A stretch of 64,000 bases of DNA, from positions 25,441 to 89,440 of the forward strand of contig MHBE01000032.1 of the NCBI GenBank assembly GCA_001803205.1, read 5' to 3'. Within the stretch, counting starts at the first letter, position 1. Each line of letters begins with the position of its first letter. The translations under genes were made by a program, and so were the position numbers. The stretch comes from Lentisphaerae bacterium GWF2_38_69. GTDB lineage: Bacteria; Verrucomicrobiota; Lentisphaeria; Victivallales; GWF2-38-69. Positions 16,331 to 30,682 of this stretch are shown here, in pieces. The notes beneath the pieces were generated by a model that saw only the letters and a program-made list of their open reading frames with translations, had not been told where the DNA came from and did not search any database.

Positions 16331-19027
16331 CTATTCGTCAAGGTCGATATACTCATATTTCTGGATTCGGAAAGTGTCACCTGAAGTGCTGCGTTGAACA
16401 GTAGCCATAATTTTTTGGGTGGCAAGAATTTCATCACCATTGATATCAAACCTACCTATTTGCGTGACTATCTGCTCGCCTGCATCGTTTGTATCTCCAT
16501 CCTCATTAAGGTCTTTTTGTATGGTAACTCCCCCAATATCTTTAATAGTCTGAGCGACTGCAACAATGGTGAATAAGTTAGCCTCAGTTGATTTAGTCAG
16601 ATTTATGAATTTCCCAACCAGTTCTTCTTTTTTTGCATCATTAGTCTGCTGAAGATTGCCTCCTGTAGAATTATAGTTCGTGAAGAGATCAATGAGAGTT
16701 GGCTCTTTCAAAAACTCCGCCCTATTTTTATAACTCCCATTATAAGACATTAGATTATTAGCAAGATTTTCAGCAATAATGGCATTAACTTCATAACTAG
16801 TAAGCCATCCTGGAACAGTATATCCGCTCCCTATTCTGATTTTTTGAAATAATACTCTTAGAACATCTAGTTCTTTGCTGTTTATACTAATTTTCCCATA
16901 AACTTGCTTCTCAGATGTCATTTTTACCTGATCATAAATATTAGCATCTCCATCAGCATAAGCATCTCCACCGCCAATCATATTTTCAGCAACATTGTAG
17001 TTTTTAAGATTAATTGTTTGCCATTTAGCTGCCCTGTGAATAGCACCCAATTCCCAAGGCGACAGCATTTTAGAATTTCTCATATATGCAGTCGAAACAT
17101 CGTATGGCTGAGTAATTCCTGGTTCAATGTCAGCGTTCCCTCCCGGATTTGGATTGCAAACAGAATTCAATGAACCAATAGTGCCGTTTGAAGAAGTATT
17201 TATTGAAACAGGTCCATTCCAGTCTGAAGCAAGGAAGTTCTGCCTGGGATCATTTATTTCATAATCGATATAAAGATTTTGAGATGTCCCAGTTGCAGTT
17301 AATGTACTAGAAGTGCAGTAGCCAGTATCAACATAAGAATAATCTAACATATTACCTGTAGTGTCATTAAGTTTTACAGTTAAGTTATTAATTTTGAATT
17401 CCGTTATACTTCTTGAAAGACCAGGAACAGCGTTAAAATCTACTGATAAAAAAGCTAAGCTGCTAGAAGCGGTTGAAGCAGAACTATATGTTTTACTGTT
17501 TGTTGTCTGGGAAATTGTTGTAGAAATATCTGTGAATGACTCCAAAGTATTATTGCCATTAGGATTCGGTGCCCATTTGAATTGCCCTGAAACTTTGATT
17601 TGAGCAGAAGTAGATATATTGGCTATTTCATAAAGATTTACCAGCTCAAGGCTTACTTCATCAAGGCTTATTCTGCAGACATAAATTGAATTTGATGGGC
17701 TTATATTTGATTCTGAAACACTTCCTGTGAACTTCAATCTTACCTCATTTATGTAAGGACATTTTTCCAGTCCTACATAAGCGGGTTGGGTTGGATTATC
17801 TGTTGTGGCAACCGTATCTGTATCGTTATAATCAATAAGATTTGCTGCAATCTGTAAACGCGCTGAATCTGCGGTTGAAAAATCTCCGTTATTTTTCCAG
17901 TTCCTTATCCAATTTATTGCATAAAGTTCTTCATCTGGTTTATTGATTGAAAATTTAACTGGTTCAGAAATAATTGAATCTACAGAAAGATCATTCCAGT
18001 TTGATCTCATAAGATTAAAGCGATGATAAAGCTCTGATTCTTCTTTTAATTCATCTGAATTGGCATTAACCCAATATGCTTCCGCATCAGGAGGGTTGTC
18101 GATGTATAACACACTACGAAATCCATTTGCGGCAGCCATGTCAGTAATCTTTCCTTGTGGGTTCATAATTTCCAAAGCCCCGAAAAGCTCTTTATAGTCC
18201 TTCCATCTACCGCCGATCGGGAGGCGCCCTGCCGGAGTATTTACGGAGCTTAACTTCTGATCGAAAATCTGTTTAAACCATAAACTTCCCGAACCTGTAC
18301 CTAAGCATCTCAAGAAAAGTTCAGAGATATCTCGTCCAGGTCTTCCAATCACATAAGTACCATCAGGATTGACCATGGTAATTTCCCTGTTGGTTTCTCC
18401 AGGACTTCCATCAGATCCTAAATTAGCGGAAGGTTCATTGGATTCAGTTGGTGTTTGATTTTCACTTAATCCCAATAATTCAGCATTTAATCCCGAATCA
18501 GCTCCCGCTGAAGGATCTACTTTCCCTTTATCTGCTATTACGACATAAGCAATTCTGGATATAAGAGGATACGAAGCATATCCTGAAGGAAGCGGCAGAT
18601 AAATCCATGTTTTGGCATCATGGCTAGTAACATCATATGTCCCGGAAGAATTAAGGGAATCAATTATCGTCACTCCGTTTACGGTAGTTTTAAGGTTTTC
18701 ATCAAGCTGGTCATAGTATATTGCAGAGTCTTCTATTGAAGTCATATAATTATTATCGTAATCGTATTCTACTTCATGATGACTCCATATCTCTTCCTGG
18801 GCAATTGTTGTATATTTGCTTACTTGCTTCATTGATACCATTGCACGATTAAGAGCTGATTGGGTAGAGATTCTTGCAACAACCATAGCATCATTGCTTT
18901 TTGTAGCTTTCTTTTCTATTATGCTTGAAGTAAGAAAAGTCAAAGCAAGCATCAGTAAAAGAATACATACTGCTATTGCGATTATAATAGCTGTCCCATT
19001 TTCTTCGTTGTTCAACAACTTTTTCAC
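16331..19027 (-). CDS. large GspK-like minor pseudopilin (cassette 1)
   Basis: The GspK-type N-terminus ENGTAIIIAIAVCILLLML has Gly followed by a hydrophobic helix and no Glu+5. A late GKISINSKELDVLRVLF segment resembles the GspK (G)KININTA..VL helix-hairpin-helix motif. It is third in an I/J/K-like gene order and is paralogous to 22832-25363. Confidence 0.6.
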   Translation of the reverse strand: MKKLLNNEENGTAIIIAIAVCILLLMLALTFLTSSIIEKKATKSNDAMVVARISTQSALNRAMVSMKQVSKYTTIAQEEIWSHHEVEYDYDNNYMTSIEDSAIYYDQLDENLKTTVNGVTIIDSLNSSGTYDVTSHDAKTWIYLPLPSGYASYPLISRIAYVVIADKGKVDPSAGADSGLNAELLGLSENQTPTESNEPSANLGSDGSPGETNREITMVNPDGTYVIGRPGRDISELFLRCLGTGSGSLWFKQIFDQKLSSVNTPAGRLPIGGRWKDYKELFGALEIMNPQGKITDMAAANGFRSVLYIDNPPDAEAYWVNANSDELKEESELYHRFNLMRSNWNDLSVDSIISEPVKFSINKPDEELYAINWIRNWKNNGDFSTADSARLQIAANLIDYNDTDTVATTDNPTQPAYVGLEKCPYINEVRLKFTGSVSESNISPSNSIYVCRISLDEVSLELVNLYEIANISTSAQIKVSGQFKWAPNPNGNNTLESFTDISTTISQTTNSKTYSSASTASSSLAFLSVDFNAVPGLSRSITEFKINNLTVKLNDTTGNMLDYSYVDTGYCTSSTLTATGTSQNLYIDYEINDPRQNFLASDWNGPVSINTSSNGTIGSLNSVCNPNPGGNADIEPGITQPYDVSTAYMRNSKMLSPWELGAIHRAAKWQTINLKNYNVAENMIGGGDAYADGDANIYDQVKMTSEKQVYGKISINSKELDVLRVLFQKIRIGSGYTVPGWLTSYEVNAIIAENLANNLMSYNGSYKNRAEFLKEPTLIDLFTNYNSTGGNLQQTNDAKKEELVGKFINLTKSTEANLFTIVAVAQTIKDIGGVTIQKDLNEDGDTNDAGEQIVTQIGRFDINGDEILATQKIMATVQRSTSGDTFRIQKYEYIDLDE

Positions 19028-19028
19028 T

Positions 19029-19835
19029 TCAGTTTTGACCTCTCTCGCTTAATAAGACAGTTTTTGAAAACATAATCTCATTTTTTTCCCTAAAATTTGC
19101 TGCAGCAGAATTCGATAAAGTTTCACTTCCATCAATAGCTTCCTTGGGATTACCTCCTATAGATAACCATTTTAGCCATTCTGAATGTGGAAGTATGAAA
19201 ATCCTGATTTCTATTGAATAAGGAAGTTCTTGAATAGAATCTTGAGAAGATGATATAATCGCGCCTGTCCTTTGAAAGCAATTAAATTCTATTTTTGTAA
19301 CATAAGGAATGATTTTGTTCGCAGGTTCGCTAGAATCATTGTTTGCAGTAAAAGCCTTGCCGCTACCCGTAAGTCCAACAGACAATGGATAATCATTGAA
19401 ATCCCATTTCTCGCTTCCTTCACCTGTTATACTCCTCATAAGCCAGCCGTCCGAATCAGATATAACTGAATTTTCAGGATACCAAAGGAAGTATTTAACC
19501 TCGTAAAGTCCTGAATAGCTTTCAGAAGCATCTTTTATGTCAATAATTGATATAAAGTTAATAGCCTGGCTATCATACCATTGATTTGTTGAAGTTTTGG
19601 ATTTAAACCAAAAAGGGGCAGTATCAGCAGTATAGTAAACAGACTGCAAATCTCGTGAGATCAATTCAAGAGCTATCCTGCCATCTTCAAATGCCTGTCT
19701 TTTCGATTCAGAAATAGACCATATATTTTTTGCAGAATTAAAGAACATCAAAACAATTCCTAGTATTATGACAAATATCAAAAGACTTGCAATAAGCTCA
19801 ATAAGAGTAAATATTTTTGAAGTTTTAACAATCAT
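19029..19835 (-). CDS. GspJ-like minor pseudopilin (cassette 1)
   Basis: Has the N-terminal prepilin-type motif KIFTLIELIASLLIF with Glu+5, followed by the GspJ-like ...RIALELISRDLQSVYY. It is paralogous to 21999-22835. Confidence 0.65.
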   Translation of the reverse strand: MIVKTSKIFTLIELIASLLIFVIILGIVLMFFNSAKNIWSISESKRQAFEDGRIALELISRDLQSVYYTADTAPFWFKSKTSTNQWYDSQAINFISIIDIKDASESYSGLYEVKYFLWYPENSVISDSDGWLMRSITGEGSEKWDFNDYPLSVGLTGSGKAFTANNDSSEPANKIIPYVTKIEFNCFQRTGAIISSSQDSIQELPYSIEIRIFILPHSEWLKWLSIGGNPKEAIDGSETLSNSAAANFREKNEIMFSKTVLLSERGQN

Positions 19836-20524
19836 TTTGCGATACCGCCTGGAGTTACATTGTTAAAATTAAAAATTTCAAAATAATATCTGTTTTTAGT
19901 TCTTTTCGAATATGGCTTGTCAGCAGGATAGCTTATTTCAATGTTTATGCCTGCAACAATTGCTTCGATATTGGCAAGTTTTTTAGTAGAATCAATGCTT
20001 GTTTCTTTATCTTCAGTATATCCTGCCACATAAAGATCTCGTAAATAAAAAGGGTCTGAAGAAGGTGTTTTATAAAATAATTGTCTCCAAACAATTGCTT
20101 CCCCCGTAAAATCAACAACATCCCCTGTCTTTATCTTAATTCCAAAGATTCCTTTAGTAAGAGGATTATTGTCAATATCTACATCTGAAGCAATATAGAT
20201 AATTGATTCTTCAGGAATATTCCAAGCAGAAGTATCCATAACGCTTGAAGGTTTGATTTCATATGGAGGCTCATTGTCTCCAGTAGATGTAGGGAGATTT
20301 GACATAACAGTATTCCATTTCGGAGTGGGCTCATTAGTCTCTCTTGAAAGATAAGCAAAAATTATGTCTGCTGCAATTGATGAATATGTTGCACCGATAG
20401 AGTCCCTATTTTGGCTAATTCCTGTAGGGAAAATTGCTAGTATGCCTATTGCTCCCAATGCAAGAATTCCTATTGCAAGAACAATTTCAACAAGAGAAAA
20501 ACTACTTTTAATAAAATTTCTCAT
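19832..20524 (-). CDS. pseudopilin with prepilin-type N-terminus (cassette 1, first gene)
   Basis: The N-terminus is MRNFIKSSFSLVEIVLAIGILALGA (F-S-L-V-E motif). The C-terminal block EISYPADKPYSKRTKNRYYFEIFN is shared with the product of 20827-21951. Confidence 0.6.
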   Translation of the reverse strand: MRNFIKSSFSLVEIVLAIGILALGAIGILAIFPTGISQNRDSIGATYSSIAADIIFAYLSRETNEPTPKWNTVMSNLPTSTGDNEPPYEIKPSSVMDTSAWNIPEESIIYIASDVDIDNNPLTKGIFGIKIKTGDVVDFTGEAIVWRQLFYKTPSSDPFYLRDLYVAGYTEDKETSIDSTKKLANIEAIVAGINIEISYPADKPYSKRTKNRYYFEIFNFNNVTPGGIAK

Positions 20525-20640
20525 ATATCTATTGTATCCTTCTATCAGATCAAACGGAAGAGTATTTGATAAATAATAAAAAACAATAATTATCTTTATT
20601 CTTTTTACTCAAGCTTTTATCGACACTAATAATTATCTCT

Positions 20641-20727
20641 ATTAATTAAGAAATAAAATTCTTATGAAAGCAATCTTAAGTTAATTTGGAGGTATATGTC
20701 AAATTAATTAAGAATTTATGTCAAATT
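20641..20727. promoter_or_regulatory. repeated words in the divergent promoter region between the two pseudopilin cassettes
   Basis: ATTAATTAAGAA occurs at 20641-20652 and 20703-20714. TATGTCAAATT occurs at 20695-20705 and 20717-20727, 22 bp apart. The words lie in the 302-bp gap between divergent starts at 20524 and 20827. Confidence 0.3.
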
Positions 20728-20826
20728 TGAATCTTTTCGCTTTAGTTACCTTTTTATTTATCGATAAAATATATATAATTTCTCATAAGAATAGAGAATG
20801 AGGATTAGGCATAATTGGAGGTAAGT

Positions 20827-21951
20827 ATGAAGATTACAAATAAGAATTTCTTTTCATTAATTGAACTATGCTTAGCTATTGGAGTCTTGGCGGTAGGAGC
20901 TACGGCAGTAACAACAATGATTCCAGTGGGAATTAAGGAGAATAGAGAATCCATTGGAAATAATTACTCATCAATATTTGCGGATGACATGCATTCATAC
21001 ATTTCAAATTATGCGCTTAATTTGACTCCGGAAAATTGGAAAGCTTATTTTAATAATCTAATGATGCCGAAAAATGGTTTTCCTTCTGTGGTGTCATCGA
21101 ATAATTGGACTCTCCTTCAGGGAGATATTTATTCACCTTCTAAAGAAGATTACAAAAACCCTGGAAATTATACCAGCGCTCTGCCTGGCGTGTACGGAAT
21201 AAAAGTACACTCAGGAAATTCTAATACTCCTGATTTTGTAGCTCAGGCAAACATTTGGGTTACGGAAGTACAAAATCTGAATCTGGCTAATTCATACGGC
21301 AATGCACAGCAAACTTCTGGAGGATTTGTAAATGTCGGTGGAGGTTCTTCTCAATCTACTACCCCTGCTGAGAGCGTTACAATGTATAAAGTTACAAGCA
21401 ACAATATTGGCATCAACCCCAATAACAGCACTTGGGTCTTTGAATTGAAAAAACCTGATGGCTCGTATTTTACCAGAGCTGATATGAAAGAAAATAAGAA
21501 AAATGATTTGTATAACAACCCAGGCGTTACAATGGAGGCAATTCTTATAAAAATGAGAATGAAAGGAGGAGGTCCTGATATAACAGTTGACACAAGTTAT
21601 TCTGTTGATCTTAAGGGAAAAAATATCATATTTGAAGCTCCGTCATCTGATCCTATGGAAGTTTGTATCTGGAAAGAAAATGGCGGAATGGGTCAATGGT
21701 ATATTAGATTTGAAGGTGGATATAGTACTATTATATCGACAGAAGATGGCAGCAGCCTTAATCTTCCAGATAAAGAAAGCGTAGCAAATCCATTGCTTTC
21801 AGATCCAAATGCTAATAATTCATTAACAACAGGAGATCTTGCTAAAGGAGTAAATGTTGAAATCAGCTGGCCTATTGAAGCGCCATACGCAAATAGAACT
21901 AAATTAAAATATTATTTTGAAGTATTTAATAAAGACTTGATTGCTCCTTAA
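20827..21951 (+). CDS. pseudopilin with prepilin-type N-terminus (cassette 2, first gene)
   Basis: I prefer the ATG at 20827, which is preceded by GGAGG at 20816-20820; the ORF-track start at 20815 is TTG. The N-terminus is MKITNKNFFSLIELCLAIGVLAVGA. The C-terminal block EISWPIEAPYANRTKLKYYFEVFN matches the cassette-1 paralog. Confidence 0.6.
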   Translation: MKITNKNFFSLIELCLAIGVLAVGATAVTTMIPVGIKENRESIGNNYSSIFADDMHSYISNYALNLTPENWKAYFNNLMMPKNGFPSVVSSNNWTLLQGDIYSPSKEDYKNPGNYTSALPGVYGIKVHSGNSNTPDFVAQANIWVTEVQNLNLANSYGNAQQTSGGFVNVGGGSSQSTTPAESVTMYKVTSNNIGINPNNSTWVFELKKPDGSYFTRADMKENKKNDLYNNPGVTMEAILIKMRMKGGGPDITVDTSYSVDLKGKNIIFEAPSSDPMEVCIWKENGGMGQWYIRFEGGYSTIISTEDGSSLNLPDKESVANPLLSDPNANNSLTTGDLAKGVNVEISWPIEAPYANRTKLKYYFEVFNKDLIAP

Positions 21952-21998
21952 AAGGCTTTTATAGCCTTTCTATCAAATCAGGGATATAATGTTTGACT

Positions 21999-22835
21999 AT
22001 GAATGCATTTAAGGTAAAGCTATCTCTGACTTTTACTTTGATTGAACTTATAGTCTCAATAGTTGTTTTGACTTTGTTAGCTATTGGAGCGGTTCAATTT
22101 TACAATGCAGCCCAAAACGCATGGACTCAGGCAGAATCAAAGAGAGAAATTTTTGAAAATGCCAGAATCGCTCTGGATTTGATTTCAAGAGACTTAGAAA
22201 GCGCATATTACGGAAGCGGGGCAGGTTCTTTTTGGCATTGGAAAGGAAATACTGACTGGAATGAATACAGTAACGAGCTTCTCGCTTTTGTTTCGGATAC
22301 TCCTATTCCACCAAATAACTCTTGTACGAGTAACTTGTGTGAAATCAAGTATCAGCTTTGTTATACTGAAAATTTAGATGACGATAAATTTGGCTGGCTG
22401 AGAAGAAGCGTCACTGGAAACTATTCCGGGACATCACCTAATCCCAAATGGAATTTTTTCAATAATTCTACTGTAGGATATACTACAAATGCCATTGGTG
22501 GCATTCCATCGGCTTCATTTACTGCTAACTCTAGTTCTTCAGAAAGCTATCAAAAATTAATTCCATATGTATTAGATGTTTCTTTTATATGTGATACTGA
22601 TACAGACCCGGGAGCTGCAATTCCTCCTGATACTACAACTAATTCAGGAGCTGATGCATGCAATGTAACTCAGTTTCCGAATCTGGTAATGGTAGATATT
22701 ACTTTGATGGATAGAAGTTCATGGACAAAATGGGTCGACTTACTAAAAAATAGTTCAACAAATGCTGATGCGTTTAGAGAAGAACATCAGAAAACTTTTT
22801 CAAGAATGATATTTTTAGATGATAGAGGACAATGA
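21999..22835 (+). CDS. GspJ-like minor pseudopilin (cassette 2)
   Basis: The start is ATG at 21999 (an in-frame TTG at 21993 is also possible). Has the motifs LTFTLIELIVSIVVL and RIALDLISRDLESAYY. The C-terminal FSRMIFLDDRGQ parallels FSKTVLLSERGQN in the paralog. Confidence 0.65.
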   Translation: MNAFKVKLSLTFTLIELIVSIVVLTLLAIGAVQFYNAAQNAWTQAESKREIFENARIALDLISRDLESAYYGSGAGSFWHWKGNTDWNEYSNELLAFVSDTPIPPNNSCTSNLCEIKYQLCYTENLDDDKFGWLRRSVTGNYSGTSPNPKWNFFNNSTVGYTTNAIGGIPSASFTANSSSSESYQKLIPYVLDVSFICDTDTDPGAAIPPDTTTNSGADACNVTQFPNLVMVDITLMDRSSWTKWVDLLKNSSTNADAFREEHQKTFSRMIFLDDRGQ

Positions 22836-25363
22836 GCAAGCTTATAAATGAAAAAGGGATAGCAACAATAATGACAATTGGGTTTGTCGTTCTTATGTTT
22901 TGTATCGCTTTAGCATTTATCACCACATCAATAATTGAAAAAAAATCTTCTCTTAATTTTCAGAGCATTGCAGTCGCAAGGCTTGCGGCACAATCAGCTA
23001 TGAGCAGAGCTTTAGCACAAATGAAATCAATTGATACACGGCTGCCATTGCATGATAAAGTTTATTCATATAGATATGAAAATGACAGCGCTGATTCGGA
23101 ATCTGACCGTGCTGGTGAAACTCTGAAATTAATAAACGCTTTATCAATTCAAATAAACGGCACGGATTATGTCCCAGTCTCCTATTCCGGAACTGACACT
23201 CCATTTGCCTGGATATACAATGTCGATACCGACAGAAAGTTGATTTCAAGAATGGCTTATGTAGTAATAACTGACTCCGGAAAACTAGACCCCTCGGCGG
23301 TTCTTGATTCGGGAACAACCTCAGGATTGCATCCTTCAGAGATAAATACAGGAATAGCCGCAAATGCCACTAATGGAATTTCTGGAGAAAATAATAGAGA
23401 AATAACAATGACAACCTCTACAACATCAAAGATAATTGGCCGGCCTGGGGCAAATGTAAATGAAATATTCCTAAGATCAATAACAAATTCGGAAAGCTGG
23501 TTTACTTCAACAGGGATAGGAAATTATGCTGAAAGAATGAGCATGACGAATTCAGACGGCACTTCATCTACAGGGGCAACATCAACCTATCTTCTTCCCG
23601 GTAATAGATGGGCTGATTATGATCAGATTTTTAAAGCCATTGAAATTGACCAGAATGATATAACAAATTTCAAAAATTTATTTTCTGTTTATGAGCCAGC
23701 TATCCCGGAAGAGTATTGGATTGATGTTAATTCAGACGGAATAAGAAGCATGTCGGAACTCTATTCAAGATTTAATTTGGGAAATGCAAACTGGGATTCG
23801 CTGACTATCAGCGATATAGATATCCCATGGTTGCAAAATTGGAAAAACCAGGGAGGATTTCCTTCCGCTTCTGATGCGAAAAATCAGATAATCGCCAATT
23901 TGATTGATTATTGCGACTCTGATGACAACCCAACTACGGATTATTCCGGAAGCAATATTCCCACATATTTCGGGCTTGAAAAAGTTCCATATGTAAATGA
24001 AGTGCGGATTCCTCTTAGTATTAATTTAGAGAAGAATGGCAGTGGAAATAAGACATGGCGATATCATACTATTTCAATAATGGATCCCGGCGTGGAAATA
24101 GAACTTGTTAATATGTATGGAAGTGTGCCTGATTCAAAAGTAAAACTGACGCTATATATAAGCATGAGGGTTAACGGAACTGAATCTCTTCCTTCATTTA
24201 TTTATGAAAATGATTTATTTCCTACTCCGTACAGTTTTCTTTCATCTGGATATCAGAAACAAGCATCGACCTTTTATAGTCTAGACGGCACTACTGCAGA
24301 AAAATATAATGTCTCATCTTTGCCATTGGAAGCAAAAGTAGACACTCTGATTGTGGAAGTCAGCAGTTCAACCACTACACAATATTATGATTATGCCGCC
24401 ATAAGCACGCCAAGCACGGCAGAGTGGATAAGTTTAGGAAATATTCCGGATGGTGTTTGGCAGGAAAGGTATATTGATTTTCAGGTTAAAGATCCAAGAC
24501 AAAACTTATTGCCAAGTGACTGGGAAGTTGACATTGACAGTTCATCTAATGGCACTTTAGATGAATTAAATCCAAAAAACAGTAATTTCCCCTCCTCATT
24601 TTCAGGAACGGATACTGATATCGAATCGAACAACATACAGCCTTATGAAATATCTACTGCATATATTCGCAATGCTCCTATGAAATCGCCATGGGAATTG
24701 GGATTTATACACAGGGGAAAAGCATTTCAGACAATTAACCTGAAACAATATAATACTACTGAAGGTTATAATGACGGCGCCGGAGGCAATTCATATTCAG
24801 ACGGAGATGCCAACATCCTTGATCAAATAAAAATGAGTTCGGAAGATTCTGAGTATGGTAAAGTAAACTTGAATACACAAAACGATACTGTTTTGAGATC
24901 CCTTTTTGACAAAATAAGAATAGGAAGCGATCCTGATAATCCTGGCTGGCTAACCACTTACAGTATCACCAACAACAATGGTTCAGATACAGCGGCACAA
25001 ATATCATCAACTATTAGAGGTTTTACCTCTGGAACCAATTTAAGTACACGAGCTGAATTGCTTTCAAATTCGAGTGTTACAAACAAATTAACTACTCTTT
25101 CAGGGCAAGTAAATGACAGGACTCAGGAGGAAGTTATAGGTAAATTTATCAATCTTACTGATGCAAGTCCCGGCAATGTTTTTTATGTTATTGCAATTGG
25201 AGAAGCTATTAAAGATGTCGGATTTGGGAACTCAACTAACTTTGAAGTGTTTGACTCAAATGCAGACATGATTTTGGCAACGCAAAAAATATACGCAATC
25301 ATACAGAGAAACCCAATAGATAATAGCTTTAAAATTATTCGGCTACAGTATGTAACCGAATAA
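22832..25363 (+). CDS. large GspK-like minor pseudopilin (cassette 2)
   Basis: The N-terminus is EKGIATIMTIGFVVLMF. It shares collinear blocks with 16331-19027: REITM..IGRPG..(S/N)E(L/I)FLR, Q I(A/I)ANLIDY.D.D, GLEK.PY(I/V)NEVR, SPWELG.IHR...QTINLK.YN and DGDANI.DQ.KM(T/S)SE..YGK(I/V).(I/L)N(S/T). Its start overlaps the upstream stop. Confidence 0.6.
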   Translation: MSKLINEKGIATIMTIGFVVLMFCIALAFITTSIIEKKSSLNFQSIAVARLAAQSAMSRALAQMKSIDTRLPLHDKVYSYRYENDSADSESDRAGETLKLINALSIQINGTDYVPVSYSGTDTPFAWIYNVDTDRKLISRMAYVVITDSGKLDPSAVLDSGTTSGLHPSEINTGIAANATNGISGENNREITMTTSTTSKIIGRPGANVNEIFLRSITNSESWFTSTGIGNYAERMSMTNSDGTSSTGATSTYLLPGNRWADYDQIFKAIEIDQNDITNFKNLFSVYEPAIPEEYWIDVNSDGIRSMSELYSRFNLGNANWDSLTISDIDIPWLQNWKNQGGFPSASDAKNQIIANLIDYCDSDDNPTTDYSGSNIPTYFGLEKVPYVNEVRIPLSINLEKNGSGNKTWRYHTISIMDPGVEIELVNMYGSVPDSKVKLTLYISMRVNGTESLPSFIYENDLFPTPYSFLSSGYQKQASTFYSLDGTTAEKYNVSSLPLEAKVDTLIVEVSSSTTTQYYDYAAISTPSTAEWISLGNIPDGVWQERYIDFQVKDPRQNLLPSDWEVDIDSSSNGTLDELNPKNSNFPSSFSGTDTDIESNNIQPYEISTAYIRNAPMKSPWELGFIHRGKAFQTINLKQYNTTEGYNDGAGGNSYSDGDANILDQIKMSSEDSEYGKVNLNTQNDTVLRSLFDKIRIGSDPDNPGWLTTYSITNNNGSDTAAQISSTIRGFTSGTNLSTRAELLSNSSVTNKLTTLSGQVNDRTQEEVIGKFINLTDASPGNVFYVIAIGEAIKDVGFGNSTNFEVFDSNADMILATQKIYAIIQRNPIDNSFKIIRLQYVTE

Positions 25364-25383: not shown

Positions 25384-26541
25384 TTATGCCTGGATAAATT
25401 CTGCCATTTCAATAATTTTATCCAGTTTTTCAGCTCTGGTTATATAGCAGTAATCTCCCAAAGCTCCTCTATATACAACTGGCATTTCCTGGTTAAGAAC
25501 AATAAATTGACCGTATTTGTTCAAAACTTCAGAATGTGAATTTTTATAAGTTTTGTTGTTCTTTCTTCCAACATAGGAGCAATGAAATTTTCTTGAATAT
25601 TCTATTTTATTTACTCCATTGATAACCAGATCAGCCCATATCTGGAAAACATTTATTTCGCAAGCGTAGTTGAACATATCTGCAGTAAGACCGCCTGGAG
25701 GCCTTATATTAACCTCCAGCGGAACAAATTCTCCTTTTGGAGTATAGAAAAATTCCAGATGGAAAAAACGATTTTTGACATTGAATCCTTTCAAACATCT
25801 CCTTCCGGCTTCTTCTAGAATCGGAGATATCTCTCTTTGAGAATAGTAATAGATATGATCGTCTTTATTCACTACATCCATTACTGGCGTGCTGAAAACA
25901 TGTGAAGTAAAAAAAACAGGTTCTGAATTCCAGTCGGCAATCCCGTCAAATGAGTGAATCTGCCCTGAAATGAATTCTTCAATAATATATGAATGATTAG
26001 AAATGGTTTCATAAGCTGTTTCAAGTTCATGTAGATTATGGATTTTATAAGTGGCGCTTGCTCCTACACCTATATCAGGTTTGGCAATAACAGGATAACC
26101 TATTTCAGTAATCCATGATTTGGCTTCATCAAAAGATTTAACAACTTTGCCTTTAGCTACTCTGAGTCCAAGCTTCTGGTAAATCTTTTTCATTTCCGAT
26201 TTGGCTTTTATATATTTCATATCTTTGCCTCGCAGCCCAGGGATGTTGAAATCATCTCTTAACTGAGCTTCCGTTTCAAGCCAGTATTCGCTGTGTGAAT
26301 CAAGAATATCAATTTTACCGTATTTGTGAATGAAATAAGCAATGCCTCTTATGAGCTCGTCATAATTATGCATATTTTCTACTTTATAGTATTCAGTAAG
26401 ATTATCTTTGAGATCCTGGCTAAGCTGATTATACGAATCATCCGCAAGGCCAAGAACTCTTGCCCCTGAACTTTTCAAAGCTTTAGCGAAGGATTTGTAA
26501 TTTGGAGGGAAGTTTGGTGAAAAGAAAATAGCATTTTTCAT
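25384..26541 (-). CDS. ATP-grasp domain carboxylate-amine ligase family protein (substrate unknown)
   Basis: A 385-aa protein with an ATP-grasp pattern: IGYPVIAKPDIGVGA, IIEEFISG and FFHLEFF....PLEVNIRPPGG. Confidence 0.75.
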   Translation of the reverse strand: MKNAIFFSPNFPPNYKSFAKALKSSGARVLGLADDSYNQLSQDLKDNLTEYYKVENMHNYDELIRGIAYFIHKYGKIDILDSHSEYWLETEAQLRDDFNIPGLRGKDMKYIKAKSEMKKIYQKLGLRVAKGKVVKSFDEAKSWITEIGYPVIAKPDIGVGASATYKIHNLHELETAYETISNHSYIIEEFISGQIHSFDGIADWNSEPVFFTSHVFSTPVMDVVNKDDHIYYYSQREISPILEEAGRRCLKGFNVKNRFFHLEFFYTPKGEFVPLEVNIRPPGGLTADMFNYACEINVFQIWADLVINGVNKIEYSRKFHCSYVGRKNNKTYKNSHSEVLNKYGQFIVLNQEMPVVYRGALGDYCYITRAEKLDKIIEMAEFIQA

Positions 26542-26778
26542 AAATTTTATTTATCCTTATGTTAAAAATATATTAAGAGATGCGAGTTAGATTTTATAGC
26601 ATCTGAATAGAAAAGTCAATTTGTGTTATTTACAGAAATTTTTAGAAAACTCCTTTCATAAATTCGATATGATACAAAAATACACTATTGTAAGGTTGGT
26701 AGGAAATTGTACAGGTTTCCAACTGGAAGTCTTTATACAGGTTTTATACATTTGATCCCCCATATCCAAAGGAGAACT

Positions 26779-28071
26779 ATGGAGCCTCGCGAATATTACA
26801 GAACAGTACTAAGCAGATTAAAAAAATGTTTTGAGCATAGCGGATGCGCAATAACCATTGAAAAGGAACTCATCGATGAAGGGTATTCAAAAGACTTCCC
26901 AAAGATGATAACTTCCAAAAAGAATATTGATTATCTGACTGTGGAAAGAGCTTTTCAAATACATTTGCCTATAATTGGAGAGAATTGCCAAACAGTGCTT
27001 TATCCCATGGATTTTGAAATATTCCTGGGAGAAGAACAGTCTCTACTATATGAAGACAAAGCCACTCAGAAAAAGTATTTCCAGGAAACATTGCCGGTAA
27101 TTAATTATATTAAAAACATCTTTATCAATAAACAAATACCGTTTCTTCTGGATTACACCCCATCTGGAGGCCATTTACTGTTTAATGTAGATGTAAATAG
27201 CAAGGCAGGAAAAGCGCTTCAGGAAATAGGCGCGATTGAACAAGGAATGCTTGAAACAAGCCTTAGGCATGGCATAACACAGAAGGCAATGCTGACCTTC
27301 AGCGGAATTACAAGAATAGCGGAGTATGTGGCGCTAAAAACTGTAATAGAATTCAAAGATTCTAAAGAAAAGGGAAATTTTGAGGTAACTATTTCAGATT
27401 CTTCTGCAAAATGCATAAATATTGACAATAGCTGGTGTGAAGGTGCCCCTCATTCTAGATCGATAAGGAGCCCATTCAGTTTGCATAAAAAGAATCAGGA
27501 GAAATATAAAAAATATGATGAGCCGCCTCTTGTAGATATTATCGGCGGCTATTTTGACGGAAAGACTTTTCATCATGAAGCTGATCTTGATACTATAATT
27601 GACGGCATGTGGGATTTGGGTAAAGCTTCAAAATGGGCAAAGAATTTTGATGGAGTTATTCCAATGGCAAATAATTCAATGGTAAAATTTATAGAAGAAT
27701 ATAAAAGTTCAGGATTGTATACTTTCCATAAGGATTTCGATACTACTAAGGATATTCCTGCAGGAAAAGCACTTGAATATGCAAGAAGCGAAAGAAATAT
27801 CCCCGAATGGACAATGAATATTCTAAACAATCCTAATCCAGGAACTGTTCAGCCGATAAATATGATTGGATTTATATACGATTTTGTAATTCGTGCCAAA
27901 TGGAGACCAAAGCATGTGGCTAACATTCTAAGAGATATTTATCTTGAAGAATCCTTCAAATGGGTTCAAGATTTTGTAGATGCCACGCCGGCAGATGAAA
28001 AAGCAAATTTTTGGGTTAGAACTTTTGCAGCTACTGCCTATTGGCAGAACGGGAAACTTAAGTTAAACTAA
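26779..28071 (+). CDS. conserved protein of unknown function with AEP (archaeo-eukaryotic primase)-like catalytic motifs, paralog A
   Basis: I prefer the ATG at 26779, preceded by AGGAG and aligned with the start of paralog B. Motifs: YPMDFEIF (DxE, motif I-like); LDYTPSGGHLLF (sGxGxH / TPSGG.HLyF-like motif II); CINIDNSWCEGAPHSRSIRSPFSLHKKN (hD ... [KR]SPFS.H.K, very like the eukaryotic PriS LLKSPFSVHPKTG motif III). This rests on motif-level recognition only. Confidence 0.5.
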   Translation: MEPREYYRTVLSRLKKCFEHSGCAITIEKELIDEGYSKDFPKMITSKKNIDYLTVERAFQIHLPIIGENCQTVLYPMDFEIFLGEEQSLLYEDKATQKKYFQETLPVINYIKNIFINKQIPFLLDYTPSGGHLLFNVDVNSKAGKALQEIGAIEQGMLETSLRHGITQKAMLTFSGITRIAEYVALKTVIEFKDSKEKGNFEVTISDSSAKCINIDNSWCEGAPHSRSIRSPFSLHKKNQEKYKKYDEPPLVDIIGGYFDGKTFHHEADLDTIIDGMWDLGKASKWAKNFDGVIPMANNSMVKFIEEYKSSGLYTFHKDFDTTKDIPAGKALEYARSERNIPEWTMNILNNPNPGTVQPINMIGFIYDFVIRAKWRPKHVANILRDIYLEESFKWVQDFVDATPADEKANFWVRTFAATAYWQNGKLKLN

Positions 28072-28116
28072 TATTTGCATTAAACTAAATTTAATTATCA
28101 GAGGAGTGCTAATTAT

Positions 28117-28302
28117 ATGAAAACCTGGCAATGTTGTGAATGTCAGTGTAATCAAGTTGAAATACCATTTTACAGAAAATGCTATCCGGATTCAGAATCA
28201 TATCTATGCCATGCATGCAGTTATCAAGCCTTAAAGCAGGGAAGAGTAGATATTCGCATGATCTCCGATCTTGATTTCATAAATTGGTTCGAAGAAGAAT
28301 AA
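28117..28302 (+). CDS. zinc-ribbon miniprotein
   Basis: A 61-aa protein. It has CCECQC near the N-terminus and CHAC 20 residues later, giving two CxxC knuckles. GAGGAG lies upstream of the ATG, and the gene starts 46 nt downstream of paralog A on the same strand. Confidence 0.5.
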   Translation: MKTWQCCECQCNQVEIPFYRKCYPDSESYLCHACSYQALKQGRVDIRMISDLDFINWFEEE

Positions 28303-28325
28303 GTCCCCCTCAGCCCAATACAAGC

Positions 28326-28362
28326 TCTGATTCATGAATGCTTATAAAAGCTATGAATCAGA
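28326..28362. terminator. hairpin between convergent genes (possible bidirectional terminator)
   Basis: A perfect 10-bp inverted repeat, TCTGATTCAT (28326-28335) and ATGAATCAGA (28353-28362), with a 17-nt loop. There is no clear U-tract on either side, so it is weak as an intrinsic terminator. Confidence 0.3.
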
Positions 28363-28401
28363 ACTGATATTTCGAAGCTCATAGATTTATTTTCTATATT
28401 A

Positions 28402-29715
28402 TTAGATTCTCATCCATCCTGCTTCAATGTAAGCCAGAGCGGAATAGGTTCTTGCCCAGAAATTAGCTTTTTCATCAGAAGGATATTCGTTATAAAAATC
28501 GTCATTCCAATTATATTTTGGATCGGCATACACATCTCTTAGAATATTTGCTACATGGCGAGGTTTCCACTTATGTTGAATTACGAATTCTCTGACGAAG
28601 TTGATTAAATTTATAGGCTGCAGGCACATTGGATTAGGCCAGTGCAGCATCCATCTTGTAATGTCAGACAGATCTTGAATTTGTTTAGCATAATCAAGAG
28701 CCATTCCAGGTTCGTTATCATAAGTTTCATCGAAATCTTTATGCATTTCGTATAGTTCCGAGCGCTTGTATTCATTTATAAAACCAATCAGCGTATTGTT
28801 GCTGTTTGGTATATTGCCTGTAAAGGTTTTTGCATATTCTGCTGCTTTTTCCAGATCCCACATGCAATCTATAACATGATCTAACTCATTAATTCCAGTT
28901 ATTTCTTCCCCGTTATAATGTACTCCGATAACATCACAAAGAGGGTCGTGCTTGTATTTAAATTTCTCCCAGTTTTTCTTATGAAGGCTGAATGGGCTCC
29001 TTATGCTTCTAAATCTTGGCGAACCTTCGCACCAGCTATTGTCAATATTTATGCAGTTCATTGCAGCATCAGAAATCATTACCGGAAGTTTTCCGGTGCG
29101 CATATTTGCTCTGAATTCTTTCATTGTGAAGAGAGCTATATATTCTGCTAATCTGGTAATACCGCTGAAAACTTTTGCAGTTTCAAGAGGTACCTGATTC
29201 TTTACTCTGTAGTCAAGAGTGCCTTTTGCCTCATTGCATGTTCTTATAAGGCCTTCTTCCAGAGCACCTATCTCGGCAAGGGCTTTAGAAGACTCTTGAT
29301 AAAGAGGAGTGTAGAAAAGTATATGGCCTCCTGCAGCTGTATAATCTAAGATGAAAGGCATTTTTCTTTTCAGGAAAATATCTTTAATGAACTGTATCAC
29401 TGGCCATATTTTTGAAAAATAATTTTTATGACTTTCCTTGCTGACAAAAAGATATTTCTGTTCTCTTGATAGAAAGAGTTCATAATCAAGAGGAGCAAGC
29501 ACTGCTTCAGTGCCTATAGCAGGAATATGAACCTGGAAACCTCTTTCGGCAGTCATGTGGTAGAGCTGATCTTTATCAAAAGTAAGAGAAGGAAAATGAG
29601 GATTTGCGTCATATTCTTTAATAATTGTCTTTTCATTGACAATAATATAATCGCTCATTGAGAAAGCAGCATCAAGTTGAGGGAAAACACTCTTGTAGTA
29701 CTCTAGTATATTCAT
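28402..29715 (-). CDS. conserved protein of unknown function with AEP-like catalytic motifs, paralog B
   Basis: A 437-aa protein collinear with paralog A. Shared motifs: APLDYELF, LDYTAAGGHILF, CINIDNSWCEGSPRFRSIRSPFSLHKKN, WKPRHVANILRDVY and SDEKANFWARTY. Confidence 0.5.
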   Translation of the reverse strand: MNILEYYKSVFPQLDAAFSMSDYIIVNEKTIIKEYDANPHFPSLTFDKDQLYHMTAERGFQVHIPAIGTEAVLAPLDYELFLSREQKYLFVSKESHKNYFSKIWPVIQFIKDIFLKRKMPFILDYTAAGGHILFYTPLYQESSKALAEIGALEEGLIRTCNEAKGTLDYRVKNQVPLETAKVFSGITRLAEYIALFTMKEFRANMRTGKLPVMISDAAMNCINIDNSWCEGSPRFRSIRSPFSLHKKNWEKFKYKHDPLCDVIGVHYNGEEITGINELDHVIDCMWDLEKAAEYAKTFTGNIPNSNNTLIGFINEYKRSELYEMHKDFDETYDNEPGMALDYAKQIQDLSDITRWMLHWPNPMCLQPINLINFVREFVIQHKWKPRHVANILRDVYADPKYNWNDDFYNEYPSDEKANFWARTYSALAYIEAGWMRI

Positions 29716-29833
29716 AAAAGATTCTCCAGTTAATTATTTCTTGAAAGTAATATATGATATTGTCTTATTTATAGCTTAAACGCAATACTTAAAGTAAAAT
29801 TAGTTGCCTGAAATGAGAAAAATAGAGGGAAAA

Positions 29834-30682
29834 ATGAAAATTGAAAAAATTTATGTTTTCGGGGATAGCATTCATGATGCCGGAAATCTCTACAAAGCCA
29901 CCAATCAGGAGCAGCCTTCAAAAAATTACTATCAGGGTAGATTTTCAAATGGCCCTGTTTACTGCGAATATATCGCTGCATTTTTATCTGAGCAGACTGG
30001 ACGGAATATATCCTTGAATAATTTTGCTTACGGGGGAGCATTGACAAAATACAGAAATGGTTATGAGCCAATGGCGATATCCCTTAAAGATCAAATTGAA
30101 CTAAAAGAGTTTATTTTTACAGAACAAGATTTAGTGATATTTGGATGCGGGCCAAATAATTATGGATTCTTTTTTGACATACACGAATTTCCATTTCTCC
30201 ATCTTAAAAGGATAAAAACAATTTCTAAGGATATTGAATTTTGCGTTAAAAGAGTAATTGAGAAAGGAGCAAAAAATATTCTTGTTTTTAATGTGCCTGA
30301 TATTTTTGAAGCTCCTGTCAAGAAAAAATTGAGCTGGTTATTCAAAGTTTTGATTGCTCCTCTTATGGAGAAATCATTAGTTAAAACAAATATAGAAATT
30401 GAGGCTATGGTAGACGCGCTCAATAGTTCAGAAATAAAAGCATGCGTTTTCGATGTTCACAAAATTTACATGGAAGCACTCTCCTCACCAGAAAAATATG
30501 GTTTCACAAATTCAAATAATTCAATAATTCCTGGCATGGGCCGTTATAATGGAAATATATCCACAGACAAGAATAAAGAGGATTATATTTTCTGGGATTA
30601 TGTACATCCAACTACCAAAGCCCATAAAATGCTGGCCGATTATCTTAGAGTTTTAATAAATGAAAAATTTAATATAGAATAA
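29834..30682 (+). CDS. SGNH/GDSL-family hydrolase (lipase/esterase)
   Basis: Block I reads IYVFGDSIHDAGN and the C-terminal block V reads WDYVHPT (DxxH). I prefer the ATG at 29834, preceded by GAGGGA; the ORF track begins at 29804. There is no signal peptide. Confidence 0.8.
   Translation: MKIEKIYVFGDSIHDAGNLYKATNQEQPSKNYYQGRFSNGPVYCEYIAAFLSEQTGRNISLNNFAYGGALTKYRNGYEPMAISLKDQIELKEFIFTEQDLVIFGCGPNNYGFFFDIHEFPFLHLKRIKTISKDIEFCVKRVIEKGAKNILVFNVPDIFEAPVKKKLSWLFKVLIAPLMEKSLVKTNIEIEAMVDALNSSEIKACVFDVHKIYMEALSSPEKYGFTNSNNSIIPGMGRYNGNISTDKNKEDYIFWDYVHPTTKAHKMLADYLRVLINEKFNIE

Follow-up and report, generated by a model that had tools for sequence, protein, structure and literature searches.

Two convergent paralogous genes of a Lentisphaerota bacterium probably encode a new family of archaeo-eukaryotic primase-like enzymes

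What is the function of two neighbouring paralogous genes, found in an uncultured anaerobic Lentisphaerota bacterium, whose products carry motifs like those of the archaeo-eukaryotic primases (AEPs) and which stand apart from the usual partners of such enzymes? Enzymes of the AEP and Prim-Pol type have key parts in replication in archaea and eukaryotes, in NHEJ in bacteria, in damage tolerance, in the replication of plasmids and viruses and in CRISPR adaptation, and those of bacteria are thought to be associated with LigD or LigC or to be carried on mobile elements.

The two genes, here called copies A and B (Table 1), lie in a 64,000-nt stretch of DNA (the window) and run towards each other, their stop codons lying at 28071 and 28402. 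An earlier note on this DNA had described them as collinear paralogues, which is borne out by a full-length comparison of the two proteins (46% identity, 66% positives, E = 3e-145). For A, the ATG at 26779 is a better start than the TTG at 26707, which would give the longest ORF, because an AAGGAG Shine-Dalgarno sequence stands 7 nt upstream of this ATG and because the orthologues of A, also of 430 aa, begin at the same position. Both proteins are mildly acidic overall (computed pI 6.3 for A and 5.8 for B), a property that does not point to avid binding of DNA. The earlier note had also reported no helicase, Ku or ligase partner, and none was found within about 10 kb of A/B, among the window's remaining large ORFs, or as a recurrent gene in the loci of relatives; CRISPR/cas genes are likewise absent near A/B and from the relatives' loci.

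Table 1. Coordinates in the window of copies A and B, their motifs and domains, and the ORF between them
Feature	Position	Strand	Remarks
Copy A	26779..28071	+	430 aa; ORF with Shine-Dalgarno; AEP-like catalytic domain aa 1 to ~262
A motif I, LYPMDFE (D78, E80)	26998..27018	+	predicted metal ligands; predicted strand 72-82
A motif II, TPSGGH (G130, H132)	27157..27174	+	beta-hairpin turn, predicted strands 122-127 / 130-138
A motif III, NID (D216)	27418..27426	+	third acidic residue, end of predicted strand 212-216
A motif IV / putative NTP-binding segment, RSIRSPFSLHKK (R227, R230, S234, H236, K238)	27457..27492	+	conservation; translation
A C-terminal all-helical domain, aa ~263-430	27562..28068	+	family-specific; superfamily-conserved
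61-aa CxxC...CxxC ORF, zinc-ribbon-like	28117..28302	+	between A and B; own GAGGAG ribosome-binding site
Copy B	28402..29715	-	437 aa; two-domain architecture same as A
B motif I, LAPLDYE (D77, E79)	29479..29499	-	translation
B motif II, TAAGGH (G129, H131)	29323..29340	-	translation
B motif III, NID (D225)	29041..29049	-	translation
B motif IV / putative NTP-binding segment, RSIRSPFSLHKK	28975..29010	-	translation

The AEP motifs have been defined as hhhDhD/E (I), sxH (II), hD/E (III) and Rh (IV) (PMC5862659), and the conserved positions fit these definitions. Every string that had been quoted for the AEP-like blocks of the two copies was recovered by translation, and motifs I to IV are complete in A and B, in keeping with the view that both are catalytically intact. 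What had been taken as a single third block has to be divided, as its residues are present in both copies but it merges motif III (NID) with a downstream motif IV segment (R..R..S.H.K), which reads RSIRSPFSLHKK in A and B alike. Across 94 superfamily sequences, 17-47% identical to A, D78 of motif I and an acidic residue at position 80 are each kept in 91/94, while in motif II G130 is found in 94/94 and H132 in 87/94, and D216 of motif III in 94/94. The invariant or near-invariant positions of the catalytic domain in this set are D78, E/D80, T/S127, G130, H132, D216, R227, R230, S/T234 and K238, and 55 of 59 additional ORFs of the family retain this signature in full. In a confident AlphaFold2 model (pLDDT 94.1, pTM 0.93) the motifs are placed on predicted beta-strands in the AEP order, R227/R230 corresponding to predicted strand 228-230.

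Structure prediction followed by a Foldseek search, which the earlier note had recommended, points in the same direction, to the AEP catalytic fold with its N-terminal alpha/beta unit and RRM-like unit: the 13 best PDB matches of the model are all AEP enzymes, as are most of the next 12, and these AEPs come from different clades. Among the top 13 are CAPP Prim-Pol (7nqf, 7nqd, 7p9j), Prim-PolC (6sa0, 6sa1, 5op0) and LigD-Pol (2iry, 2iru, 2fao), with E = 4e-3 to 6e-2, probability 0.97-1.0 and target-normalised TM 0.43-0.59, the E-values being modest (about 1e-2) and the RMSDs large (6-11 Å); human PriS and poxvirus D5/E5 AEP domains follow further down the list. In BFVD, the best matches are viral AEP primases and Prim-Pols, and one BFVD match bears the name 'TOTE conflict system primase domain'. 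When the catalytic-domain profile of the superfamily was aligned by hhalign with LigD/Prim-PolC, P = 1.6e-4 was obtained across 86 columns at a probability of 20-50%, with the family TGxGxH aligned to LigD SGGKGxH; the co-aligned region covers motif II alone with its preceding helix, as motifs I and III are shifted by family-specific insertions. Unrelated profiles gave 0.3-0.5 in this comparison, a reversed profile 0.77, and the best of 30 column shuffles 0.029.

A comparison with the Pfam models, which had also been recommended, returned nothing for A, B or their relatives. No model from Pfam, NCBIfam, PHROG, PADLOC or the PDB-sequence set gave a family match for A, B and about 90 relatives, the PDB sequence profiles yielding nothing relevant for any of them, and the Pfam/NCBIfam AEP models (DNA_primase_S, Prim-Pol, LigD_Prim-Pol and others) matched 0/94 members even at E <= 10, DNA_primase_S failing at this threshold for A, B and 92 relatives. 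The top 13 fold matches of the predicted structure, the hhalign P value and the invariant motifs nevertheless support the AEP-like catalytic core that had been proposed, and A and B are very probably AEP-fold nucleotidyltransferases with an intact active site, the assignment to this fold being solid.

The C-terminal ~170 aa were found to have no such counterpart. Blocks conserved between the paralogues, as had been noted, are present in both, and P295, Y308, S311, L313, H317, P359 and W395 are conserved across the superfamily. A separate model of this domain (pLDDT 85) gave no significant match in the PDB (best E = 2.7), and the domain resembles neither PriL-CTD nor PriCT nor any other accessory domain of primases; DNA_primase_lrg matched weakly in just 1/94 members (E = 0.029).

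The family has 160 or more close homologues and, at 50% identity, no fewer than 275 clusters, all with these motifs in common, which is far more than chance would give, and all labelled "hypothetical" everywhere. Its members occur in anaerobic Lentisphaerota, Desulfobacterota, Elusimicrobiota and Negativicutes, with 45-55% identity across phyla and a single copy in most phyla, the A/B duplication being confined to Lentisphaerota, where B forms a distinct paralogue lineage specific to this phylum. Mapping of phyletic spread and neighbourhood, another of the checks proposed earlier, thus yielded several phyla and, across 84 loci, no conserved neighbour gene. In these 84 loci of the A/B family and in 47 loci of a distant subfamily, neither an integrase nor a helicase nor any further conserved neighbour was seen, a TIM barrel of the distant subfamily apart, no recurrent Ku or ligase gene was seen in either set, and no viral relative was present in 2.9 million viral contigs.

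Among known systems, Prim-PolC (PolD1) and the LigD polymerase domain (5op0, 6sa0, 2iry, 2fao) are among the best structural matches and provide the sole sequence-profile link. They resemble the family in being stand-alone bacterial AEP catalytic domains of ~260-300 aa with an acidic triad, sGxGxH, and P-(F/Y)-S after motif III (APYSxR, as compared with SPFSLH in the family). The family differs from them in ~15 aa inserted after motif I, ~30 aa of helices before motif III, the extra 170-aa helical domain and its different taxa, all in anaerobic phyla; it is matched by neither LigD_Prim-Pol nor any other Pfam/NCBIfam model, and it has neither Ku nor a LigC/LigD ligase nor a PE domain nearby. 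A LigD/Ku NHEJ module was rejected for A/B, no Ku, ligase or PE domain being adjacent in the window or recurrent in the 84 and 47 loci, as was a Prim-PolC/LigC excision-repair module, there being no operonic ligase among the neighbours. The top Foldseek match, CAPP Prim-Pol of Marinitoga (7nqf, 7nqd, 7p9j; E = 3.9e-3, probability 1.0, TM 0.59 normalised to the 219-aa target), is distinguished by the absence of CRISPR/cas genes near the family, of detected sequence similarity and of shared accessory domains.

PriS (4lik, 6r4t) is a weaker structural match (E = 0.4-2.5). As a comparison of spacing only, R230...H236 of A, the basic residue and the His/Tyr position that follow motif III, are 6 residues apart, like the NTP-binding K318...H324 of human PriS and R231...N237 of PolpTN2 (PMC5862659). 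Two adjacent genes recall the two-subunit PriS-PriL primase, but a heterodimer of this kind was rejected, since no PriL-type domain or PriL-CTD similarity is present and the second gene encodes a catalytically intact paralogue, as opposed to an Fe-S subunit of PriL type. The PrimPol-PV1 supergroup and PolpTN2-like AEPs have a conserved Arg on the motif IV flange strand, as do R227/R230 of A (Kazlauskas et al. 2018); these are plasmid- or virus-borne and often have Gln in place of the motif II His, whereas the A family is chromosomal and keeps the His. A mobile-element primase-helicase, in which a Prim-Pol goes with PriCT, D5_N or an SF3 or DnaB helicase, was rejected as well, given the lack of a helicase domain, of relatives in the viral contigs and of PHROG or PADLOC matches, and given the housekeeping flanks.

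Another context is found in the distant subfamily, which has the same signature and next to which a TIM barrel lies immediately in 19/47 loci, two fusions with the barrel occurring as well; tandem pairs of the subfamily occur at 13 loci, and at one locus a PolB-VRR_NUC gene is a further neighbour. The barrel is endonuclease IV-like (PF01261, E = 7e-37), its closest structure being MJ1311, an uncharacterised structural-genomics orphan. Of the nine ligands of the Nfo trinuclear metal site (H69, H109, E145, D179, H182, H216, D229, H231, E261), H109, E145, D179, H182, H216, D229, H231 and E261 are kept, seven ligands are in register, E261 is one column off, and H69 probably corresponds to the histidine of FH(A/V)P. 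The nfo and CbiR models match the barrel only below their cut-offs, CbiR being the best in NCBIfam, and the next-best solved relatives after MJ1311 are ketose 3-epimerases (6e-10 to 7e-8), not Endo IV. In mycobacterial BER, it has been shown experimentally that EndoIV and Prim-PolC cooperate, gap processing being followed by gap filling (PMC5663958), and the distant subfamily with its barrel mirrors this order. The repair reading of A and B is drawn from these relatives, which are ~20-25% identical, because the subfamily of A/B itself has no TIM-barrel partner.

We favour, at a probability of roughly 55%, a new AEP family that performs repair-type priming or gap-filling; a DNA repair or priming role, taken on its own, has slightly less than an even chance. 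The N-terminal ~260 aa would be the AEP catalytic module, in which D78 and E80 (motif I) and D216 (motif III) would bind two catalytic metal ions, and H132 together with R227/R230, S234, H236 and K238 would hold the triphosphate of the incoming NTP. The C-terminal helical domain may bind the template or the initiating nucleotide, as helical or zinc modules of other AEPs do. The activity would be template-dependent nucleotide polymerisation on DNA, in short-gap or repair synthesis or in re-priming, by a stand-alone chromosomal enzyme acting outside any Ku/LigD or helicase module. A functional hetero-oligomer of A and B is doubtful, with some indirect support for pairing from the recurrent tandem pairs of the distant subfamily. 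A bolder proposal, which we regard as quite unlikely, is that of a second chromosomal, vertically kept primase-polymerase of anaerobic bacteria and probably archaea, in which two paralogues, both catalytic and with a novel helical domain of their own, would form a hetero-oligomer for DnaG-independent re-priming or for a new Endo IV-coupled excision-repair synthesis; more novel still would be an AEP active site put to non-DNA chemistry alongside the MJ1311-type phosphodiesterase.

To our knowledge, all AEPs characterised so far polymerise nucleotides on a nucleic-acid template, which speaks against the suggestion that the AEP fold and active site serve a substrate other than chromosomal DNA, in RNA end repair or tailing, in making an untemplated nucleotide signal, or in nucleotidylation of small molecules or sugar-phosphates, the barrel then acting on the product. 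This suggestion, which we consider unlikely, draws on the ketose 3-epimerases that follow MJ1311 among the solved relatives of the barrel and on its best NCBIfam match, CbiR, a small-molecule phosphodiesterase; the barrel itself, however, keeps three-metal ligands of the Endo IV/CbiR type and not the E-D-H-E set of the epimerases. While the mild acidity of A/B, the want of a DNA-metabolism gene consistently nearby, a C-terminal domain with no primase-like match, and a 45-55% cross-phylum identity in scattered housekeeping contexts that resembles a metabolic enzyme would also fit such a substrate, there is the PolB-VRR_NUC gene beside the family gene at one locus, and cooperation of EndoIV with an AEP has direct experimental precedent (PMC5663958).

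It could also be argued that the resemblance is spurious, that is, that another alpha/beta fold of unrelated function has short motifs and an AlphaFold model that mimic an AEP by chance, as there is no HMM-level match to any AEP model, Foldseek E is ~1e-2 with high RMSD, and hhalign probability is 20-50%. We hold this to be highly unlikely in view of the 13/13 best PDB matches and most of the next 12 being AEPs of different clades, the viral primases found in the independent BFVD library, an hhalign P that surpasses the best of 30 shuffles 180-fold and the controls at least 100-fold, and superfamily-invariant residues that coincide with all four AEP motifs, correctly ordered and placed on the secondary-structure elements expected for them. 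Most improbable is a mobile element or anti-phage/conflict system with the Prim-Pol as replication initiator or defence effector, for which flat GC content throughout the A/B region, the lack of a PADLOC or PHROG match and of relatives in the viral contigs, and the absence of an integrase, helicase or conserved neighbour in 84 and 47 loci leave little room, even if, LigD aside, the majority of bacterial AEPs reside on mobile elements (PMC5862659), BFVD returned the 'TOTE conflict system primase domain' protein, and a paralogue pair with a small zinc-ribbon gene could look like a cassette. The flanks of A/B are housekeeping genes (NDH-2, cytochrome bd and polyprenyl synthase in the window; tRNA synthetases and PolA in relatives), and the gene occurs in one copy and keeps 45-55% identity from phylum to phylum.

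Read as an AEP family with a repair-type role, these proteins would represent a chromosomal AEP that stands alone, is strongly conserved and carries a new accessory domain, missed by present annotation profiles in several anaerobic phyla known almost solely from metagenomes, and with a sister subfamily, often tandem-duplicated, that is tied to an Endo IV-like phosphodiesterase by adjacency and fusion. If this is true, a new excision-repair or re-priming module would be defined, MJ1311 would gain a function, and profiles built on the family would allow 'hypothetical proteins' to be annotated as repair enzymes in their hundreds; should the substrate not be DNA, this would be, as far as we know, the first AEP whose role lies outside nucleic acids.

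A separate observation concerns the 61-aa zinc-ribbon-like ORF between A and B, which did not appear in the earlier note and which related Lentisphaerota MAGs have in the corresponding place, with 85-87% conservation.

[quoted passage not shown] The convergent, collinear pair described in the earlier note was recovered exactly at the positions listed in the table, where the two proteins align end to end with 46% identity (E = 3e-145), and all of the motif strings quoted in that note are present, each having been mapped to nucleotides and verified by translation. An AAGGAG box lies 7 nt before the ATG at 26779, and orthologues of 430 aa start at the corresponding residue; both favour this ATG over a longer ORF for A that starts with TTG at 26707. 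The 61-aa ORF, which the earlier note had missed, has its own GAGGAG ribosome-binding site and is absent beside single-copy family members; it very probably represents a genuine small zinc-ribbon gene, since it keeps 85-87% identity and the same position in the closest Lentisphaerota metagenome-assembled genomes (MAGs; loci L001/L002/L006 and L005). The computed pI values of A and B are mildly acidic (6.3 and 5.8), no obvious LexA-type box was seen when the upstream regions were read by eye, and promoter and terminator scans gave nothing informative.

Coordinates of the features discussed, in the window unless a locus (L-number) is given
Feature	Position or locus	Strand	Remarks
ORF A	26779-28071	+	430 aa from ATG
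ORF B	28402-29715	-	437 aa
61-aa ORF	28117-28302	+	two CxxC pairs, zinc-ribbon-like; between the two stop codons of A and B
ATP-grasp_4 protein	25384-26541	-	385 aa; divergent from copy A
GDSL lipase	29804-30682	+	best NCBIfam match Legionella lysophospholipase PlaA, E = 1e-40, below cut-off
Six successive ORFs	16331-25363		898, 268, 230, 378, 280 and 843 aa
LacAB_rpiB fusion ORF	49047-50765	-	572 aa
Distant subfamily with MJ1311-like barrel	L086 4750-5898; L089 3886-5052; L090 2243-3208		association
Barrel after family gene	L099, L100, L104, L109, L113, L116-L118, L120, L122, L123, L125, L128, L129, L131, L134
Tandem family paralogues	L088 1295-4020; L092, L095-L097, L101-L103, L107, L111, L112, L114, L119
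Variant family member	L122 3365-4765; L123 6951-8351		near-identical loci
DNA polymerase-VRR-NUC fusion	L086 7442-10018	-	858 aa; convergent to family gene

Conservation was assessed in an alignment of 94 members of the wider superfamily that are just 17-47% identical to A. G130 and D216 (numbering of A) are present in all 94 members, D78, an acid at position 80 and T/S127 in 91 each, H132 and K238 in 87 each, R227 and S/T234 in 86 each, and R230 in 82. The published AEP motifs are hhhDhD/E (I), sxH (II), hD/E (III) and an Arg in the flange strand termed 'motif IV' (PMC5862659), and the conserved positions fit motifs I-IV, in agreement with the AEP-like blocks claimed in the earlier note; in the AlphaFold2 model they fall on beta-strands whose predicted order is that of AEPs. 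In human PriS the NTP-binding residues K318...H324, and in PolpTN2 R231...N237, are spaced by six residues (PMC5862659), and by these published positions R230...H236 of A has the same spacing. The eleven-residue signature is whole in A and in B, so that both copies look catalytically intact, as had been suggested, and it is also whole in 55 of 59 further family ORFs from metagenomes.

The AlphaFold2 model of A, for which a 32-sequence alignment served as input, is very confident (pLDDT 94.1, pTM 0.93), and its best 13 Foldseek matches in the PDB are all AEP enzymes, namely the CAPP Prim-Pol domain, mycobacterial Prim-PolC and the LigD polymerase domains (LigD-Pol) of M. tuberculosis and P. aeruginosa (E = 4e-3 to 6e-2, probability 0.97-1.0, target-normalised TM 0.43-0.59). 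Next come human PriS, the D5/E5 AEP domains of poxviruses and ASFV PrimPol, and a search of a viral-structure library with the model independently returned primase and Prim-Pol proteins. While these scores are modest, the consistency of the AEP matches is striking. For comparison of profiles, LigD of the Agrobacterium At plasmid led to four solved LigD-Pol/Prim-PolC chains, which provided the reference profile. Against this profile, hhalign gave P = 1.1e-3 for the 94-sequence superfamily profile and P = 1.6e-4 over 86 columns for the catalytic domain only, placing the T-G-x-G-x-H hairpin of the family and the long helix before it on the S-G-G-K-G-x-H and helix of LigD; controls gave 0.3-0.5 for unrelated profiles, 0.77 for the reversed profile and 0.029 for the best of 30 column shuffles. 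Motifs I and III were not co-aligned with those of LigD, and neither global nor low-MAC mode yielded a credible collinear alignment of the two; relative to LigD, the family carries insertions of about 15 residues behind motif I and of about 30 helical residues ahead of motif III. The hhalign statistics for the AEP link are, like those of Foldseek, modest.

Residues ~263-430 of A form an all-helical C-terminal domain that is conserved throughout the superfamily (P295, Y308, S311, L313, H317, P359 and W395). Modelled alone (pLDDT 85), it has no significant match in the PDB (best E 2.7, to generic helical proteins), and on this account it is a family-specific domain. Its identification as a PriL-CTD, PriCT or pRN1 helical domain is unsupported by any significant PDB match, and likening it to PriL-CTD, PriCT or the pRN1 helix bundle would be speculative and functional only.

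Scans of A and B against Pfam, NCBIfam, PHROGs and PADLOC gave no matches, to curated AEP families or otherwise, and searches of PDB sequences with the single sequence, the close-family profile, the broad profile or a 60-aa consensus spanning motifs III and IV found nothing relevant; when the 94 superfamily members were compared with Pfam at E <= 10, the AP_endonuc_2 fusions were picked up and otherwise just scattered noise. Close homologues (~437 aa, 43-73% identity) number at least 160 and are called 'hypothetical protein' wherever they are publicly named, and an exhaustive profile search gave at least 275 clusters at 50% identity; no description of the family was found in the literature. 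All 80 genome matches (L005-L084) are metagenome-assembled or single-cell genomes with no cultured isolate seen among them, which makes the genetics of the close family harder. The closest relatives in named genomes are from Lentisphaerota/Victivallales (65-70%), which places the window in this lineage, and the gene is also present in many Desulfobacterota, Elusimicrobiota and Negativicutes. Copies of the B type (63-79% identity to B), which adjoin A or lie elsewhere in the genome and are always accompanied by an A-type copy, are limited to Lentisphaerota/Victivallales MAGs, and other phyla have a single copy about equally distant from A and B, a distribution that points to an old, lineage-specific and retained duplication.

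The window is ordinary anaerobe chromosome of flat GC, with genes for NDH-2, a polyprenyl synthase, cytochrome bd and a YjjI-type glycyl-radical enzyme, and with RecJ 16 kb away. When all ORFs within +/-10 kb of 84 close-family loci were clustered, no conserved neighbour emerged, the largest cluster being a generic ABC ATPase at 16 loci, and a scan of viral contigs found no relatives of the family. The order ATP-grasp, A, 61-aa ORF, B, GDSL lipase is retained solely in the window's own clade. The ATP-grasp_4 gene stands beside the pair in close relatives only (5 loci), and its functional connection with the pair was considered and rejected because it is syntenic with the pair only in this clade, where the shared placement is probably plain synteny; the GDSL lipase is likewise syntenic with the pair only there. 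Elsewhere in the window, none of the six successive ORFs before the ATP-grasp_4 gene has a Pfam match, and the 843-aa product has an N-terminal hydrophobic helix that recalls pseudopilin or secretion-system components, while a single ORF unusually joins a LacAB_rpiB (ribose-5-phosphate isomerase B) domain to a full serine hydroxymethyltransferase.

The family has the motifs and the predicted fold of the AEP superfamily, no curated AEP model detects it, and the defining contexts of the LigD/Ku, LigC/Prim-PolC, primase-helicase and PriS/PriL systems do not apply; the usual AEP partners, whose absence the earlier note had remarked upon, are not recurrent neighbours in the 84 loci. On these grounds it is filed as a putative new family within the AEP superfamily, outside every named AEP family. 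The observation made in the earlier note is confirmed and its AEP interpretation is supported. Structurally, the family is nearest to Prim-PolC/LigD-Pol and the CAPP Prim-Pol domain, and it may work like them.

Members of the distant subfamily are 460-530 aa long, about 20-25% identical to A, and carry an additional segment at the N-terminus and a Cys cluster (D.NC.SQQEKG.C..P.CG) at the C-terminus; the 61-aa protein might, speculatively, provide this cluster in trans. A 4-sequence alignment proved suitable for pattern-based locus searches, for which broad alignments were too divergent, and large-database searches with two broad alignments returned mostly the close family, or six proteins only. 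Of 47 loci surveyed, 16 have a ~280-aa AP_endonuc_2 TIM barrel directly after the family gene, in at least two different flanking contexts, and three further loci have it before the gene. Two proteins (P0231 and P0257) are direct fusions of the two. The barrel belongs to PF01261 (E = 7e-37) and is closest to uncharacterised MJ1311 (PDB 3wqo; E = 3e-24 to 4.5e-21), with ketose epimerases second and Endo IV third; its best NCBIfam match, phosphodiesterase CbiR, is below cut-off. In alignment with E. coli Nfo, H109, E145, D179, H182, H216, D229 and H231 are in register, E261 is shifted by a single column and an equivalent of H69 is probable, so the metal site is predicted to be of the trinuclear Endo IV type; epimerases have an E-D-H-E site instead. 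In M. jannaschii, MJ1311 has been named as the predicted homologue of Endo IV (PMC2770678), and the association offers a candidate functional partner for this structural-genomics orphan.

In the proposed mechanism, D78, E80 and D216 would carry out two-metal nucleotidyl transfer, H132, R227, R230, S234, H236 and K238 would bind the NTP, and the C-terminal domain would have an accessory role, the most likely function being that of a stand-alone enzyme for repair-type DNA synthesis or re-priming. The best functional clue is that the sister subfamily has an Endo IV-like partner. In mycobacterial base excision repair, the 3' end is cleaned by Endo IV, after which the AEP Prim-PolC uses rNTPs to fill the short gap and LigC seals it (PMC5663958), an order that this pairing matches. 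Whether a repair role carries over to A and B is uncertain, because they lack this partner, the barrel being absent from the window and from the surroundings of every close-family locus. A substrate other than DNA, acted on by the active site in concert with the MJ1311-type phosphodiesterase, is also conceivable, if rather unlikely. Cooperation of two catalytic subunits is plausible but unproven, given that paralogue pairs recur: tandem, motif-intact pairs occur at 13 of the 47 distant loci and arose independently of the A/B pair of Lentisphaerota.

At two of the distant loci, L122 and L123, the family member has the signature N-D-S-G-Y-E-P-R-S-Y-K in place of the usual D-E-T-G-H-D-R-R-S-Y-K, with the TIM barrel still present one gene later; this variant is either a degenerate or inactive form or an alignment artefact. 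At L086, on a contig that is probably archaeal (TrmB and DUF8156 neighbours), the family gene faces the gene of a family-B DNA polymerase that bears a fused VRR-NUC nuclease domain, the one example seen of such a neighbour.
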